Counted from the stretch's first letter, positions 27,365 to 34,108 are shown. The stretch is DNA of 64,000 nucleotides from Candidatus Iainarchaeum sp. (GCA_026397015.1 JAPLVR010000006.1:64977-128976); one strand, 5' to 3'. The notes: generated by a model from the letters alone, not told the origin. Program-made: numbers and translations.

Positions 27365-28561
27365 ATGCAGATAGGAATCGTTGGAAAACCGTCAAGCGGA
27401 AAAAGCACCTTCTTCAGCGCCGCCACTTTGATTGACGTTGCAATCGCAAATTATCCATTCACAACAATCGAGCCGAACAAGGGAATGGGATTAGTTAGAG
27501 TAGAAGATGCTGGAAAATTTTTTGGAGTGCAAAGCAAACCCCGTTATGGATTTGTGGTCAATGACGTAAGATACGTTCCGATTGAACTGATTGATGTCGC
27601 GGGGCTTGTTCCGGGCGCAAACGAGGGCCGCGGGCTTGGAAACAAATTCCTCAACGATTTAAGCCAGGCCGACGCGCTAATACATGTGATTGATGCCTCC
27701 GGAAGCACAGACGCGGAGGGAAAGGTTGTTGCGGAAGGAAGCCATGACCCGTGCGAAGACGTTTCATTCCTTGAAAAAGAAATTGATTTGTGGTTTTTAA
27801 AAATAATCGAAAATAATCTTCTAAAAATTGCGAGAAATCCTGAAAAAGATTCGCGAAAAAGACTGGCGCTGCTTTCGCAGCACCTTGCCGGCGTAAAAAT
27901 ACTTTCAACTCACGTTGAAAAGGCGCTTAAACAATTGGGGATGGAAGAAAAAAGATTTAATGAGTGGAACGCGGAAGACAAAAAAAATTTTGCGACAAAA
28001 TGCAGAGAACTTAGCAAACCAATAGTTATTGCGGCGAATAAGTGCGACCTTCCATCGGCGGAAAAAAACATTCTGCGGATGAAGGAAAAATTTAAAGGGC
28101 AAATAATTGTGCCGTGCTCGGCTGCGAGCGAGCTTTCACTAAGAAAGGCGGCAAAACAAAAAATTTTGACATACCACCCCGGGCAAAAAAACTTTGAAAT
28201 CGAAGGGCAGATTAATGAGAAGCAGCGCGAAGGGCTTGAAATAATAAAAAAAAATGTTTTGGAAAAATTCGGCGGCACGGGGGTGCAGGAATGCCTCGAC
28301 AAAACAGTTTTCGATTTCCTGAAATACATTGCGGTTTTCCCAGGCGGAACAAAGGGGCTGGAGGACTCGGAGGGGAGGACACTGCCCGATTGCTGGCTCC
28401 TTCCAGAAGGTAGCACCGCCCTTGACTTTGCATTCACAATCCATACTGACATAGGAAAAGGATTCATTCGCGCAATCGATGTGAAAACAAAGCAGGTAAT
28501 AGGAAAGGAGCACAAACTAAAAACGGGCGATGTTATCGAAGTTGTTTTCAAAAAACACTGA
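27365..28561 (+). CDS. Obg-family GTPase/ATPase (YchF/OLA1-like) with C-terminal TGS domain
   Basis: G1 GKPSSGKST, NYPFTTIEPN, G3 DVAGLV, G4 NKCD. The C-terminal KTGDVIEVVF is TGS-like. Confidence 0.85.
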   Translation: MQIGIVGKPSSGKSTFFSAATLIDVAIANYPFTTIEPNKGMGLVRVEDAGKFFGVQSKPRYGFVVNDVRYVPIELIDVAGLVPGANEGRGLGNKFLNDLSQADALIHVIDASGSTDAEGKVVAEGSHDPCEDVSFLEKEIDLWFLKIIENNLLKIARNPEKDSRKRLALLSQHLAGVKILSTHVEKALKQLGMEEKRFNEWNAEDKKNFATKCRELSKPIVIAANKCDLPSAEKNILRMKEKFKGQIIVPCSAASELSLRKAAKQKILTYHPGQKNFEIEGQINEKQREGLEIIKKNVLEKFGGTGVQECLDKTVFDFLKYIAVFPGGTKGLEDSEGRTLPDCWLLPEGSTALDFAFTIHTDIGKGFIRAIDVKTKQVIGKEHKLKTGDVIEVVFKKH

Positions 28562-28567
28562 ATGAAA

Positions 28568-30394
28568 TTATTCGACTGTTACACTCTTTGCAAGATTTCT
28601 CGGTTTGTCGATTTCACGCCCCATCTCATCGGCAACATAATACGCAAATAATTGCAAAGGAATTATGCTGAGAAGAGGAGAAACCAGTTCATGCGTTTTC
28701 GGAATACAAAAAAATTCGTTGCAGAGCTTTGCTGTTTCACTGTCACATTCATTTATTATTGAAATTACTTTTCCTGAACGGGCTTTTACTTCCTGAATAT
28801 TTCCACGCAGTTTTTCCAGCAAAGCGCCGCTTGCCCCGACAAAAACAGCCGGAAAATTCTTATCTATTAGTGCGATTGTGCCGTGCTTCATTTCAGCGGC
28901 AGGCATTCCCCAGGCATTAACATAAGAAATTTCTTTCAGCTTCAACGCACCTTCAAGTGCAACGAAATAATCGATTCCCCTTCCGAGGAAAAGAAAATTT
29001 GAATATTTTGAATTCACCTTTGCAATAAACTTTATCTTGTTCTTTTTTTCAAAAATTTCCCTCATTTTTACTGGCACTTTCTTCAATTCCAAAACAATCA
29101 ATTTGATTTCTTCTTTCGAAGCAGTTTTTCTCTGCACGGCGCCGTAAAGCGCGAAGAGCAGAAGCACGGCAATTTGAGTAGTAAACGCTTTTGTCGAGGC
29201 AACGCCGATTTCAGGGCCGGCTTTTGTGCAGATGGCTGCACCGCTTTCCCTCGCAATCGTTGAACCTTCAACATTAACAATCGCCATGGTTTGTGCGCCC
29301 CTGCGCTTCGCTTCCCTCAGCGCCGCAAGAGTGTCTGCGGTTTCACCGCTCTGACTTATCGCGACAACTAAACAATTCTTGCCTATAACAGGGCACCTAT
29401 ATCGAAATTCGCTTGCGCACTCAACTTTAACGGGAACTTTCCAAAGTTTTTCAATCAGGAATTCCGCAATCATGCCTGCATGAAGCGACGTGCCGCACGC
29501 AACAATTACAATTCGCTCAGTTTTTTTGATTTTGCCATTAAATCCTTCCAGCTCTTCAAGCACAGGTAGAGAATTTTTTATTCTGCCCGCAGTGCAGCTT
29601 TCAATGCATTCGGGTTGCTCGAAAATTTCCTTAAGCATGAAGTGTTTAAATCCGTTTTTTTCAGCCTGCCAACGACGCAAATTAATTTTCACTGCCTTTT
29701 TTGCCGCTTTTTTCTCACCGTTAAAACCGAATATTTCAATTTCACTGTTTCCTTCCATTTTTACAAATGCAATTTCACCGTCGCCAAGAAAAATAGCCTT
29801 GCCAGCATAATCTATGAATCCAATCGGGTCACTGGCGAAAAAAATCCCTTCATTGCCAAGCCCGACCACGAGGGGGCTGCCATTTTTTGCCCCGCAGAGC
29901 TGGTTGGATTTTTTATCAAGAATCAACAATGCAAAATTTCCTTCCAAATGGTTACATGCCAGCGTTACCGCCTCTCTAAATCCTTTTCCTTCGCATAGAA
30001 AAGCTTCAATCAGATGAGGCACAACTTCAGTATCGGTTTCGCTTGAAAAAAAATGCCCCTTTCTTTCAAGGGCGCGCCGCAGAGAAGAATGATTTTCAAT
30101 TATCCCATTGTGAACAACTGCTATTCTTTTGTCGCAGCTCAAATGCGGGTGGGCATTTTTTTCAGAAACTTTTCCGTGCGTTGCCCAGCGAGTATGCGCG
30201 ATTCCAATGTTTCCGCTTTGAATTTTTTCGGCAAAATAATCGAGCTTTCCAACCCTTTTCAAAATTTTGTGGTCGCCGTTGCTTAAAACCGAAAATCCGA
30301 AAGAGTCGTAGCCCCTGTAGTCCAGCCTCTTTAGACAGGCGGGCAAAAATTCAGAAACATTCCCGTTTCCGCAATAACCGACAATTCCACACAT
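28568..30394 (-). CDS. glmS: glutamine--fructose-6-phosphate aminotransferase
   Basis: I place the start at MCGIVGY (catalytic Cys2). Two SIS domains are present, with the canonical C-terminus NLAKSVTVE. Confidence 0.9.
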   Translation of the reverse strand: MCGIVGYCGNGNVSEFLPACLKRLDYRGYDSFGFSVLSNGDHKILKRVGKLDYFAEKIQSGNIGIAHTRWATHGKVSEKNAHPHLSCDKRIAVVHNGIIENHSSLRRALERKGHFFSSETDTEVVPHLIEAFLCEGKGFREAVTLACNHLEGNFALLILDKKSNQLCGAKNGSPLVVGLGNEGIFFASDPIGFIDYAGKAIFLGDGEIAFVKMEGNSEIEIFGFNGEKKAAKKAVKINLRRWQAEKNGFKHFMLKEIFEQPECIESCTAGRIKNSLPVLEELEGFNGKIKKTERIVIVACGTSLHAGMIAEFLIEKLWKVPVKVECASEFRYRCPVIGKNCLVVAISQSGETADTLAALREAKRRGAQTMAIVNVEGSTIARESGAAICTKAGPEIGVASTKAFTTQIAVLLLFALYGAVQRKTASKEEIKLIVLELKKVPVKMREIFEKKNKIKFIAKVNSKYSNFLFLGRGIDYFVALEGALKLKEISYVNAWGMPAAEMKHGTIALIDKNFPAVFVGASGALLEKLRGNIQEVKARSGKVISIINECDSETAKLCNEFFCIPKTHELVSPLLSIIPLQLFAYYVADEMGREIDKPRNLAKSVTVE

Positions 30395-30526
30395 TTTGCT
30401 TTTCAATCAGAATTAGTTTTTGCTTCTTTTAAGCGGATTGGTGCGATTGTACAAAAAAATAGCAGGCATGATGAAACGCGCCAAAAGAAATTGAACTGAA
30501 GTCCGAGAAAAAAATTGGCCCGAAAA

Positions 30527-30913
30527 TTATTTTTCCTCTTCTATTATTTCGGTAATTGTTTTTGATCTTGAGGGGGATTCGTTCGCGGCTGGCCTGGATC
30601 TTGTCTCCTCGACAATTTCAGTCCTCTTAACAGTTGCTCCTGTGTTGCCCGTTGAAGTTGTGGAAGTGGTTTCAGTTACTGTTTTATCAACTCCAATCAC
30701 TTCCTTGCGGACAATTTTATTTTCATCTTCAATGATTTGCCTTGAAATCCTTCTCATTGCATCTTCCTTGTTCCTTAATTTGTTGAGAGTGTAGAAATAT
30801 GAATTTATTATCTGGTCGAGGTCAAGCTGCCTCTTGAAACCGAGGCGCGCGATTTCTTCGAAATAAAGCCTCACTATTTTAAACGATACTTCTTCATCCT
30901 TCATTTTAATCAC
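30527..30913 (-). CDS. hypothetical protein; N-terminal ~50-aa domain paralogous to the C-terminus of the adjacent basic protein
   Basis: 128 aa. EEVSFKIVRLYFEEIARLGFKRQLDLDQIINSYFYTLNKLR is followed by a T/S/E-rich tail. Confidence 0.55.
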   Translation of the reverse strand: MIKMKDEEVSFKIVRLYFEEIARLGFKRQLDLDQIINSYFYTLNKLRNKEDAMRRISRQIIEDENKIVRKEVIGVDKTVTETTSTTSTGNTGATVKRTEIVEETRSRPAANESPSRSKTITEIIEEEK

Positions 30914-30924
30914 TTCCCAAAAAA

Positions 30925-31863
30925 TTATCTTCTCATCCTGCTTTTCTTCACGGCATCGGCAATGGCGGTCATTTCGATGTCCTGCCTTCGCACTCTTGCC
31001 AGCGCATATAGATACGCATTAACTATTTCATCAAGGGTAAGCTGTTTTTTGAACCCCAAACGGGCAACTTCCTTGAAGTAAGTCTGAATTATTTTGAAAG
31101 CAATCTCTTCTTCGCTCTCGCCCAAAAGATTCTCCACTTCATCTCTTGAAACGGTTCGTGAACTCGAAATAACGGACTGCATTATTGAGCGTATTTGTGC
31201 AGGAGTAACGGCTTCGGAAGAAGTCGAAATGGTTGTCGTCCTTCGAATTTTGGCTGGACGCACTTTGTGCACCCTGCGCACCCCCCTCACAATCTTTACA
31301 ACTCTTTTAACCCTTCTCCTTTTAGGTTTGATAATAATCTTTCTTGTTCTGTATCTCAACTTGGTAATAACCCTCGGCTTGGATTTTATATTCCTTGTTC
31401 TGTATCTCAACTTAGTAATAACCCTCGGCTTGGATTTTATCCTTCTGACCTTAACAACCGTTTTCGTAACAGTCCTGGTTTTGCCTTTCCTGCCAAGCTT
31501 GCCTGCTTTTGCAAGCCTCCACAACGCAACCGCCTGCTTGAAGGTCTTTCCCAAACGCATCTGGGAACCGATGAATTGATTGTAGGCGGAAGGCCTTCGC
31601 TTGGTTTTGTTCAAAAGAGCTTTGTATTTGTTCCACTCTTTTACGGCTTTCGCAAAGGTGGCGCCCGCAAGTATCTGCCTTTTAATAAAAAAATTGTATT
31701 CTGAAACGTGCTTTGAAGGCATTTTCTTTTTTTTCTTCAATTTTTCTATTTCAACTTTAAGTTTGTTAATCTCCTTCCCCTGTTCCGCGGTTTTCTTCCG
31801 CGCCTTCACAGCCGCTTTCTTCGCAGATTTTATTTCCTTCCTGCCCTTCCTGTCAACAGCCAA
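30925..31863 (-). CDS. highly basic hypothetical protein with two HMG/YABBY-like motifs, a 17-aa tandem repeat and a conserved C-terminal domain
   Basis: 312 aa and K/R-rich throughout. Contains PSKHVSEYNFFIKRQILAGATFAKAVKEW and RRPSAYNQFIGSQMRLGKTFKQAVALW, IKSKPRVITKLRYRTR(N/K) twice, and C-terminal EEIAFKIIQTYFKEVARLGFKKQLTLDEIVNAYLYALARVR. Confidence 0.55.
   Translation of the reverse strand: MAVDRKGRKEIKSAKKAAVKARKKTAEQGKEINKLKVEIEKLKKKKKMPSKHVSEYNFFIKRQILAGATFAKAVKEWNKYKALLNKTKRRPSAYNQFIGSQMRLGKTFKQAVALWRLAKAGKLGRKGKTRTVTKTVVKVRRIKSKPRVITKLRYRTRNIKSKPRVITKLRYRTRKIIIKPKRRRVKRVVKIVRGVRRVHKVRPAKIRRTTTISTSSEAVTPAQIRSIMQSVISSSRTVSRDEVENLLGESEEEIAFKIIQTYFKEVARLGFKKQLTLDEIVNAYLYALARVRRQDIEMTAIADAVKKSRMRR
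31339..31440 (-). repeat. in-frame 51-bp tandem duplication (2 copies)
   Basis: The two adjacent 51-nt units differ at only a few positions and encode IKSKPRVITKLRYRTRN and IKSKPRVITKLRYRTRK. Confidence 0.85.
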
Positions 31864-32061
31864 ATCAATTCACCCGTACAAAATAAATTTTAGCTCGGGC
31901 TTAAAACGATGCCCGATAAAGTATCTCGACCAAAAGGGTATATAAAAGTTTCCTTTTAACTGGAAAAGGTGAATGGTCCGCATTTTGCAACTTTTTGCCA
32001 TAGCTTTTTCGAAAACGACCGAAATAGTGTTTTTTAAACAATCATTCCACAAATTGAAACC

Positions 32062-32208
32062 ATGAGCATAAAACCAAAGTGCGACAAATGCGGAAAGGAA
32101 TTAACCGAATTCGGGGGCATCCTTTTTGGGCCGCCAAATAGAAACTCAAAAGTCAAAAAGCACCACTTGTGCAGGAAATGCTACAAAAAAATCGCTGCGG
32201 AACTTTAA
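32062..32208 (+). CDS. 48-aa zinc-ribbon protein (below track cutoff)
   Basis: My own translation: MSIKPKCDKCGKELTEFGGILFGPPNRNSKVKKHHLCRKCYKKIAAEL, with two CxxC pairs. A TATA-like TTTTAAA lies about 27 nt upstream of the ATG, consistent with a leaderless mRNA. Confidence 0.45.
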   Translation: MSIKPKCDKCGKELTEFGGILFGPPNRNSKVKKHHLCRKCYKKIAAEL

Positions 32209-32247
32209 AAAACAACAAAACCCAAAAAAACAGCCCAAAGGCAAAAG

Positions 32248-32254
32248 TTAAATA
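32248..32254 (+). promoter_or_regulatory. candidate TATA box about 26 nt upstream of ATG 32277
   Basis: TTAAATA centred about 26 nt before the ATG. No SD is present, consistent with a leaderless transcript. Confidence 0.3.
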
Positions 32255-32276
32255 CCAATAAAGAAATAATCCTTGC

Positions 32277-32957
32277 ATGCGGAGAATATTCAGGCGCGGA
32301 ATCGCGCGCCCAAAAAAAAGGAAATTTTTCAGAAAGGCGTTCAGGGCGATTGCCCTCGCCGGGCTGCTTGGCGCAACGGCGGGGTGCGCGCCCCCGCGAA
32401 ACGCGATAATCATAAGGGGAAGGATGGGGAAAGCCGCAGCCAAAAGGGAGCAAAAAGAACTCATTGAAAAGCTCGGGCTGGAAAGGACATGTATGCTTTA
32501 CGAAAGGAAGGTGAAGCACGAGATACTTATGGATGAACTTAATAAGGAAAGCCGGGACATCATCAAAACGGAAAAGGAAAGCCAGGACATTATCAAAATG
32601 GAACAGGAACTTGGCAAATCAACAAGCCTAAAGAGGAAACTGAATGTGCTGGAAGAGAAATTTGAATTATTAAAAAGAAAATACCTAGAATACCAAGGCA
32701 GGTTCGAGGAAAAGGAGCAGAAGATAATAACAAACATACAGGAGGGGCACTACATACTCCTTTACCCGGAAGAGTACAAAAAAGAACTCGGAAAATACGT
32801 GAAAGAAAATAAGCGCGAGCCGAATGAAAACGAGCTGAAATCAATAGTGAAAAAGGCATCGTACCTGGCATGGCTTCAAGCGAGGGTTGCAGCCAAAAAT
32901 GAATGGGAAGAATTCGTTCAATATCTGATAAAAATCAACAAAAAAAAGGCTAAATAA
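32277..32957 (+). CDS. hypothetical coiled-coil protein, possible lipoprotein signal peptide
   Basis: 226 aa. The N-terminus MRRIFRRGIARPKKRKFFRKAFRAIALAGLLGATAGC is lipobox-like. The remainder is K/E-rich coiled coil. An alternative start is MGKAAAK at 32424, behind AAGGGGAAGG. Confidence 0.45.
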   Translation: MRRIFRRGIARPKKRKFFRKAFRAIALAGLLGATAGCAPPRNAIIIRGRMGKAAAKREQKELIEKLGLERTCMLYERKVKHEILMDELNKESRDIIKTEKESQDIIKMEQELGKSTSLKRKLNVLEEKFELLKRKYLEYQGRFEEKEQKIITNIQEGHYILLYPEEYKKELGKYVKENKREPNENELKSIVKKASYLAWLQARVAAKNEWEEFVQYLIKINKKKAK

Positions 32958-33037
32958 AATAACGGAAAAAAAATCCGGATAAAGGCTGCCGATAAAAAAT
33001 AATTCCGTGCCGGCAAAATAAAATAATCGGAAAAAAA

Positions 33038-34108
33038 TTACCTCGCCGCCTTCGAAATCAGCCTGGTAAACCCCCTTCCCTTTTGCACGCGCCGCGCCCT
33101 CAAAATTCCCTTTCCCTCCAAATCAGAAACCGCCTTGCGGAGGGTACGCTCCGAAAACTTCCTGCCAAGCGCCTTGTAAACCGCGCCAGCATCCACTTCC
33201 CCGCCCGCAACAAAGTTGAGGACCAAAAATTCCTGTTCCGAAAGGTTTTCCGCAATCTCGAACTTCACGGGTTTCTCCTGCATGAAAGAAGCGCGCACAT
33301 GCTTCAACTGAACCTGCTTTGCGTTTTCCCTCTCCGCCAGGCGCGCCGCCTTCAGAAGCACTGTTATTGCTATCCGCGCATCGCCCCCGTTCTTTGCCGC
33401 GTGAGCGGCGCAAAGCGGAATCACTTCGTTTTCGAGAGCGTTGCCGAAGAATGCGTACTGCGCCCTTTCCTTCAAAATCTCCTTCAATTCGATTGGTGAA
33501 TACTTTTCAAATGAGAGGTGCGACGCCTGGAGCGAACTTCTCACCCTTTCGTCAATTGCGGAAAGGAAGAAGGCGTCGTTGGAAATGAAAACCATCCCGA
33601 GGAAAAGGCCCTTTTCCTCGCCAAGCCTGGAAAAATCATAAAGCAGTTTTTTTGAATCATCCGTTTTCAGCAGCTGCTCGGCCTCGTCAAAAACGATTAT
33701 CGGAATGACTTTTTTCGATTTGAGAAGCGCGACAAGCCTTTCATAAACCTCTTCGCTTCCAAGCCCCCTTTCCGGCACCGGATAGCCTAAAGAGTTGACC
33801 GTTTTAACAAGAATCCCGTTGCGGGTGGATTTTTCAAAGCAATTAATGTAAACGCATTTCGCCCTGTCTGAAAACTCCTCCAATTCGTGAAGCACATATT
33901 TCAGGGTAACGGTTTTTCCGGTTCCGGGAAAACCCGAAACAAAAATATTGCCCGGCTTTCTGCCCATGGTTGCCGGCTTCAGCGCAAAAACAAGTTCGCT
34001 TATTTCCCTTTCACGGAAAGGAAGCCTCTCCGGAACAAACTCCGGATAAAGATAGCGCTCGTCTTTAAGTATTCCTTTTTCATCTGACTTTTCAAAAGGA
34101 TTCGCCAT
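33038..34108 (-). CDS. cdc6: Orc1/Cdc6 replication initiator
   Basis: Walker A GFPGTGKTVTL, Walker B IIVFDEAEQL, and a C-terminal winged helix (SERTLRKAVSDLEGKGILRARRVQKGRGF). Confidence 0.9.
   Translation of the reverse strand: MANPFEKSDEKGILKDERYLYPEFVPERLPFREREISELVFALKPATMGRKPGNIFVSGFPGTGKTVTLKYVLHELEEFSDRAKCVYINCFEKSTRNGILVKTVNSLGYPVPERGLGSEEVYERLVALLKSKKVIPIIVFDEAEQLLKTDDSKKLLYDFSRLGEEKGLFLGMVFISNDAFFLSAIDERVRSSLQASHLSFEKYSPIELKEILKERAQYAFFGNALENEVIPLCAAHAAKNGGDARIAITVLLKAARLAERENAKQVQLKHVRASFMQEKPVKFEIAENLSEQEFLVLNFVAGGEVDAGAVYKALGRKFSERTLRKAVSDLEGKGILRARRVQKGRGFTRLISKAAR

Follow-up and report, generated by a model that had tools for sequence, protein, structure and literature searches.

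A gene pair of Iainarchaeota encoding a hyper-basic protein with tandem two-helix hairpins that resemble YABBY and HMG-box domains

A 64,000-nucleotide (nt) stretch of DNA from Candidatus Iainarchaeum sp. (GCA_026397015.1 JAPLVR010000006.1:64977-128976), called the window below, with positions counted from its first letter, carries a pair of adjacent genes at 30527-31863. The larger gene encodes a hyper-basic protein with two tandem two-helix hairpins that resemble YABBY and HMG-box domains. The smaller encodes a partner that shares a domain with the tail of the large protein. The pair may encode a lineage-specific nucleoid-associated DNA-binding complex of Iainarchaeota, a reading to which we give an even chance; three elements of it are inferred: that the proteins bind DNA, that they form a heterodimer and that their role is architectural, not gene-specific. 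The reading is supported by the hyper-basic charge, the two-hairpin model, the tail pairing pattern, the linkage to cdc6 and the profile homology. What appears to be new is a minimal two-helix tandem form of the HMG-box superfamily in an architecture specific to an archaeal lineage. The two genes are:

30925..31863, minus strand: large gene, 312 amino acids (aa), with a TTG start preceded by the Shine-Dalgarno (SD)-like GGGTGA
30527..30904, minus strand: small partner gene, 125 aa when read from the ATG (30527-30913 and 128 aa if the GTG at 30913 is the start)

Both open reading frames (ORFs) had been pointed out in an earlier interpretation made without database searches, the sequence-only reading, and both were found. 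The large protein is rich in lysine and arginine (K+R), as described there, with 92 such residues among 312, an isoelectric point (pI) of 11.6 and no cysteine. Its partner, which had been called acidic, is neutral, with 23 K+R, 23 aspartate plus glutamate (D+E) and a pI of 6.41. The ATG at 30904 is favoured as the start of the small gene by public gene calls and by the SD-like GGAAGTGA. It lies 20 nt past the stop of the large gene, and because of this spacing the two genes are probably co-transcribed as one operon.

An AlphaFold2 model of the large protein was built with 109 homologues. The parts of the two proteins are as follows, with pLDDT denoting the predicted local distance difference test score of the model:

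31732..31851, minus strand: basic N-terminal helix, aa 5-44, pLDDT about 85, ending in a leucine-zipper-like heptad
31606..31719, minus strand: hairpin 1, aa 49-86, VSEYNFFIKRQILAGATFAKAVKEW, helices 55-65 and 70-86
31501..31605, minus strand: hairpin 2, aa 87-121, RRPSAYNQFIGSQMRLGKTFKQAVALW, helices 93-103 and 108-119
31219..31479, minus strand: disordered basic region, aa 129-215, 17-aa IKSKPRVITKLRYRTR units, pLDDT about 50
31114..31218, minus strand: serine/threonine (S/T)-rich linker, aa 216-250, disordered in the model
30964..31113, minus strand: C-terminal helical domain, aa 251-300, beginning EEIAFKIIQTYFKEVARLGFKKQLTLDEIVNAY, an orphan domain confined to the phylum
30752..30904, minus strand: partner aa 1-51, paralogue of the large-protein C-terminal domain (hhalign)
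30530..30562, minus strand: conserved C-terminal peptide of the partner, KTITEIIEEEK, from an alignment of 42 partners

The two hairpins occupy nt 31501-31719 together. Their four short helices are modelled with pLDDT 88-98 in the full-length protein, and a model of the domain only (aa 45-128) reaches a pLDDT of 88.3 and a predicted template modelling score of 0.72. Compared as profiles, hairpin 1 and hairpin 2 match at 98.5% (hhalign, E 2.4e-15), and six residues, Y, N, F, G, F and W, do not vary in either copy across the 109 homologues. Judged by these profiles the two copies are a true internal duplication, as had been proposed, with one correction of register: the P-S of copy 2 aligns with V53-S54 of copy 1 and not with the P-S at aa 49-50. 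The zipper-like a/d heptad that closes the preceding helix consists of I32, L35, I39 and L42, of which L35 never varies in the family, while I32 and L42 hardly vary in the homologue alignment. In the PDB this helix finds weak coiled-coil matches only.

The relation of the hairpins to known families was examined with a reference set of six plant YABBY domains and 11 canonical HMG boxes, which were verified in Pfam (6/6 as YABBY, 11/11 as HMG_box). The archaeal domain matches YABBY at 92.2% in hhalign (P 5.8e-7) over 33 columns across both helices, with a 10-residue gap in the helix I/loop region. Hairpin 1 alone matches at 95.3% and hairpin 2 alone at 94.3%; YABBY against the canonical HMG box, in the same test, gives 95.1%. 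None of 200 column-shuffled YABBY alignments matched the observed score (maximum 21.7 versus 35.9). The signature PSAYNxFI…F..A...W was found within a helix-loop-helix by sequence, by hhalign and by the AlphaFold helices of hairpin 2. When 28 non-redundant N-terminal domains were scanned singly, YABBY was the top Pfam family for 27 of them (best E 5e-5), while HMG_box_2 was reached by four, with E 0.024 or weaker, and HMG_box by one.

An exhaustive search with the profile of the N-terminal domain against 1.84 billion representative proteins gave 182 matches at E <=1e-3. Matches beyond the archaeal family include proteins that independently pass the Pfam gathering scores:

P0268: search E 5.2e-7; Pfam HMG_box 106 bits, YABBY 80 bits
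P0289: search E 4.9e-6; Pfam YABBY 35.2 bits
P0314: search E 2.8e-5; Pfam HMG_box 45.5 bits
P0319: search E 4.3e-5; Pfam HMG_box 26.4 bits
P0324: search E 5.5e-5; Pfam HMG_box 38.8 bits

Among the 127 distant matches, YABBY is matched at E <=0.01 by 22, HMG_box_2 by 10 and HMG_box by 7. One subgroup has the archaeal-type short loop followed by a typical HMG helix III (WKxLdxxxQxxYKxKA). Archaeal hairpin 2 matches this short-loop subgroup at 98.7% (E 4.6e-16), gapless over 33 columns, and the subgroup in turn matches canonical HMG boxes at 96.0% over all three helices. Because a chain thus leads from the archaeal hairpin through the short-loop subgroup to the canonical HMG boxes, the profiles support a clan-level homology of the hairpin to the HMG-box superfamily.

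The C-terminal domain of the large protein is helical over aa 251-308 (pLDDT about 80) and has a paralogue at the N-terminus of the partner. The sequence-only reading had estimated that about half of the positions are identical; the window pair is in fact 49% identical, and the two domains match at 99.9% in hhalign (E 6.7e-32). The number of copies at a locus appears to be constrained. Large proteins with one C-terminal domain are followed by a small gene that bears the paralogue (the window, L001, L006 and L007), whereas those with two such domains are found where the small gene is absent (L002, L004 and L005); an N-terminal domain plus two C-terminal copies occurs in 15 collected proteins. 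Exactly two tail-domain copies are present in 42 of the 46 species loci linked to cdc6: 33 are split (1+1), 8 are fused (2+0) and 1 has a broken ORF (0+2). The other loci comprise 3 single-copy cases, of which one is on a truncated contig, and 1 truncated locus with zero copies. This split-or-fused pattern, the best available evidence on the point, suggests that the paralogous tail domains act together. It thereby favours the pairing through the shared domain that had been proposed, and it points to a heterodimer rather than proving one. Taken strictly, the limit of two tail domains at each locus predicts a specific heterodimer.

In the partner, the paralogous domain is followed by a poorly conserved T/S-rich linker and then by the C-terminal peptide, with the consensus K-[TS]-I-T-[ED]-I-[IL]-E-E, which looks like a docking motif for a third protein. 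An HMGB1-like acidic autoinhibitor tail was also considered for the partner and dropped, the tail having 12 K+R versus 14 D+E.

The basic region between the hairpins and the tail domain is disordered together with the linker (aa 129-250, pLDDT about 50) and contains 36 K+R and no D+E. The DNA at 31343-31440 is a 51-bp tandem repeat with 97% identity, and the duplicated basic unit of 17 aa is its translation. The tract is fast-evolving through repeat expansion and contraction, since homologues carry anywhere from about none to seven of the basic units. A PADLOC Csa3 model gave a weak match (E 0.0032, 15.9 bits) to aa 203-285 (window 31008-31257), covering the linker plus the first C-terminal-domain helix; it is probably a spurious chance match.

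A total of 119 large-protein and 106 small-protein homologues were found, all unannotated; those with named sources come from metagenome-assembled Diapherotrites or Iainarchaeum genomes. The N-terminal domain was found at 55 loci among GTDB species representatives, labelled Iainarchaeum, Forterrea or 'archaeon' and in two cases Micrarchaeota, and the profile of the C-terminal domain matched in this phylum only, including GW2011_AR10. The family is almost wholly confined to Iainarchaeota/Diapherotrites. Within it the genomic position is conserved. At 46 of the 55 species loci an orc1/cdc6 gene is found upstream, on the same strand and no more than 3 kb away, and at 40 a convergent YchF/YGR210-like GTPase gene lies downstream. 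Seven loci viewed at gene level agree, including members at 36-38% identity, and in these views RFC-large and PheRS are also near the pair. In the window the two conserved neighbours are:

33038..34108, minus strand: orc1/cdc6, the conserved upstream neighbour; a 1.17-kb insert lies here between it and the large gene
27365..28561, plus strand: YchF/YGR210-like GTPase, the conserved convergent downstream neighbour, with glmS in between

If the pair forms a nucleoid-associated complex, the large protein would contact DNA through tandem minimal hairpins homologous to helices I-II of the HMG-box/YABBY superfamily, each laid out as a basic N-terminal arm followed by SAYNxF and then by F..A...W. The disordered, H1-like basic repeat tract would provide a second DNA contact. 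Self-association would be brought about by the short N-terminal zipper and the C-terminal domain, the latter pairing either with the small-protein paralogue or, where fused, with a second copy of itself. The paired complex could then bend or bridge DNA.

Several points weigh against this proposal. The window protein stays below the gathering threshold of Pfam YABBY (PF04690), which is 28.6 bits: YABBY is the sole relevant match of the whole large protein, at 14.6 bits (E 0.043), and the window domain alone reaches 18.2 bits (E 0.0032) with a match that covers 17 residues only. The Pfam HMG_box search (PF00505/PF09011) gave no match of the window protein at the gathering threshold, and direct comparison of the archaeal domain with canonical HMG boxes gave 26-55% in hhalign. 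The L-shaped three-helix fold that had been expected is not what AlphaFold predicts; the model consists of two two-helix hairpins and helix III is absent. For the YABBY domain itself, a 39-aa helix-loop-helix superimposable on HMG-D helices I-II has been described (bioRxiv 10.1101/2022.11.22.517060), and the modelled archaeal hairpin has the same topology, but it is 10 residues shorter, the deletion falling in the helix I/loop region. Foldseek found nothing at E <1.5 with the full-length model against the PDB or with the domain-only model against the PDB and BFVD; its lists contain no HMG box and no significant fold, the best PDB hit having E 1.7 and the query-normalised TM (template modelling) score being at most 0.40 among the PDB matches of the fold test and at most 0.46 over all the lists. 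The intermediates of the homology chain were chosen by their similarity to the query, which makes that step of the chain partly circular. The HMG/YABBY relation is thus supported by sequence and not by fold. Of the profile signal anticipated by the sequence-only reading, the YABBY comparison and the retrieval of Pfam-passing proteins stood, and a match of the window protein itself above the Pfam thresholds did not.

Further points against the proposal concern function. The conserved gene order, kept within one phylum, may reflect inheritance and not function, and both DNA binding and the nucleoid role are predictions. Diapherotrites are listed as encoding histones (PMC6136690), so that a further chromatin protein is not required. 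For the same reason little weight attaches to the earlier argument from the lack of a histone gene in the window, 64 kb being a small sample of the genome. Searches of the window by tblastn with sequences of HMfB, Alba, MC1, Cren7, Sul7d and HU returned nothing at E <0.4.

Four other explanations were weighed. It is unlikely that the large protein is a sequence-specific transcription regulator, whose hairpins would read a defined motif in the manner of plant YABBY or Sox/TCF proteins with the partner as co-regulator. The nearest profile match is indeed YABBY, a transcription-factor family, the gene sits at a fixed locus among the loci examined, and the conserved C-terminal peptide of the partner could recruit another factor. 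The long non-specific basic tract, the variable repeats and the extreme pI nevertheless fit architectural proteins better, and neither a zinc finger nor another specificity module is present in this cysteine-free protein.

It is improbable that the protein is an RNA-binding or ribosome-associated basic protein, in which hairpins and repeats would bind structured RNA in the way of the Maelstrom HMG box. The hyper-basic composition would suit such a role, the YchF/YGR210-like GTPase and PheRS are among the neighbours, and one HMG box is documented to bind RNA and not double-stranded DNA (PMC4373776). No ribosomal or RNA-binding family was matched, however, in searches of Pfam, NCBIfam and PDB sequences; the GTPase gene is convergent and so is not co-transcribed with the pair; and cdc6 is the most tightly linked and best conserved of the same-strand neighbours.

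Quite improbable, too, is that the YABBY-like motif is convergent and belongs to an unrelated four-helix module in another scaffold, for example one of cell division or segregation. This explanation would account for the Foldseek and Pfam results given above; the short motif is also the strongest portion of the signal, and the ordered parts of the protein are mostly coiled-coil and dimerisation elements. Against it, the likeness runs through the entire hairpin as far as the distal F..A...W and lies above all 200 shuffles, the gapless 98.7% match is to boxes in which a canonical helix III follows, and the Pfam-passing proteins were retrieved from the 1.84 billion at E 5e-7 to 5e-5. That the protein derives from a virus or mobile element and is resident in the chromosome is barely credible: a phage head-module protein and a giant-virus-like contig do bear the same short hairpin, but 46 of 55 species share one chromosomal position, the G+C content of the pair region is like that of its surroundings, there is no PHROG match and no relative was found in IMG/VR.

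The nucleoid-associated reading can also be set beside known systems. With YABBY (PF04690) the archaeal protein shares the basic arm, PSAYNxFI, F..A...W, the helix-loop-helix and the two-helix unit. It differs in its sub-threshold score, its shorter hairpin, its tandem duplication and the absence of the C2C2 zinc finger that is found at the N-terminus of YABBY proteins; the flanking domains are wholly unlike, and YABBY is plant-specific by description. Tandem HMG-box proteins such as TFAM, Abf2 and chloroplast HBD1 likewise combine two tandem modules with a basic composition and with DNA binding, which is a prediction for the archaeal protein. The likeness is backed by homology through the short-loop group and by the Pfam-passing HMG-box proteins that the profile retrieves; the differences are those of helix III, the L-shaped fold, the Foldseek result and the low direct similarity. 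Tandem HMG boxes are reported to organise organelle nucleoids (PMC8157925), and these organelle proteins are the closest functional analogy.

Linker-histone or H1-like basic repeat tails are K/R-rich and disordered. The basic tract of the large protein resembles them in these properties and in its short S-K-P-K repeats of variable copy number; it differs in being one module of a multidomain protein, and the likeness is compositional, with sequence homology not claimed. Archaeal histones, Alba, MC1, Cren7 and Sul7d resemble the pair in the proposed role alone and have no sequence relationship to it in Pfam, in NCBIfam or by tblastn in the window.

The pair lies outside all Pfam, NCBIfam, PHROG and PADLOC families, save for the sub-threshold YABBY and Csa3 matches. 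NCBIfam and PHROGs gave no match for either protein, PADLOC gave the weak Csa3 match only, and a known ribosomal or viral family, which the sequence-only reading had named as counting against itself, was not matched in Pfam, NCBIfam or PHROGs. Searches of PDB sequences by phmmer and by profile gave nothing significant, whether the query was the whole protein, the family or the C-terminal domain. A consensus hairpin found no match in 50,697 phage records by tblastn, to which the low-complexity filter possibly contributed, and IMG/VR, scanned for close family members, yielded none. Literature searches on archaeal or prokaryotic HMG/YABBY domains turned up no account of these proteins.

The same hairpin was observed in other settings. 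P0306 (L063:8001-9242) has two short-loop PSAYNxF…W hairpins and is encoded between Peptidase_S78_2 and major-capsid-like genes, the usual position of a scaffold protein. P0321 (L064:8001-8618) carries a C-terminal copy, and its contig, with Pox_A32, DUF5754 and NUMOD4-HNH, has a giant-virus-like look. P0246 (L065:7001-8011) is a hairpin protein within a phage-like run of small ORFs. Five metagenomic, eukaryote-looking proteins (P0243, P0249, P0253, P0274 and P0341) have both the topoisomerase C-terminal repeat Toprim_C_rpt (E about 1e-13) and a tandem series of 3-5 short-loop HMG-like boxes that are below the Pfam HMG_box threshold; these boxes look like an undescribed short-loop HMG subfamily. 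P0255, P0256, P0259, P0261, P0266, P0292, P0295 and others are small metagenomic proteins of about 40-110 aa, with a variable N-terminal part and a single C-terminal KRKPSAYNxFxGxxMKxGKSMxEAxxxWK hairpin. The only cluster name among the distant hairpin proteins was 'hypothetical protein'. Within the phylum, divergent members with a single hairpin and one C-terminal domain lie away from cdc6 and the GTPase (L050, L051, L053, L055, L060 and L061), and they may form a second paralogous lineage.

The minus-strand order of the window is PheRS-alpha, PheRS-beta, Cdc6, the 1.17-kb insert, the large gene, the small gene and glmS. The glmS gene (28568-30406) lies between the small gene and the GTPase, whereas at most related loci the GTPase directly follows the pair. 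The insert (31864-33037), which other loci do not have, contains a plus-strand ORF at 32277-32957 encoding 226 aa with a basic and hydrophobic N-terminus that ends in a lipobox-like LLGATAGC; a 30-nt tandem repeat lies within this ORF at 32544-32609. A 48-aa CxxC…CxxC ORF is found at 32062-32208 and a 27-nt direct repeat at 32948-32974 and 33012-33038. Replication-origin-like repeats were sought around cdc6, and short, weak repeats only were found, in intergenic spaces too small for an origin to be argued. One candidate promoter element was read directly from the sequence:

31939..31946, minus strand: candidate archaeal TATA box TTTATATA, about 80 nt upstream of the large-gene start

The HMG box is regarded as a hallmark of eukaryotic chromatin and YABBY as plant-specific, and to our knowledge the established archaeal chromatin components include no HMG-type protein. 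A wider proposal, which we hold to be doubtful, is that the large protein is a chromatin- or replication-linked protein of Iainarchaeota built from minimal two-helix HMG/YABBY modules, and that the hairpin is an ancient module of archaea, viruses and eukaryotes. If this is true, the supposedly eukaryote-specific HMG box and the plant-specific YABBY have prokaryotic or viral relatives, perhaps precursors, and the archaeal family would make the origin of the HMG/YABBY superfamily testable. At about 35 aa per hairpin, the module would be a tractable minimal model for HMG-type DNA recognition, and its phylum-wide tandem form would be a new kind of candidate among the nucleoid proteins of archaea.

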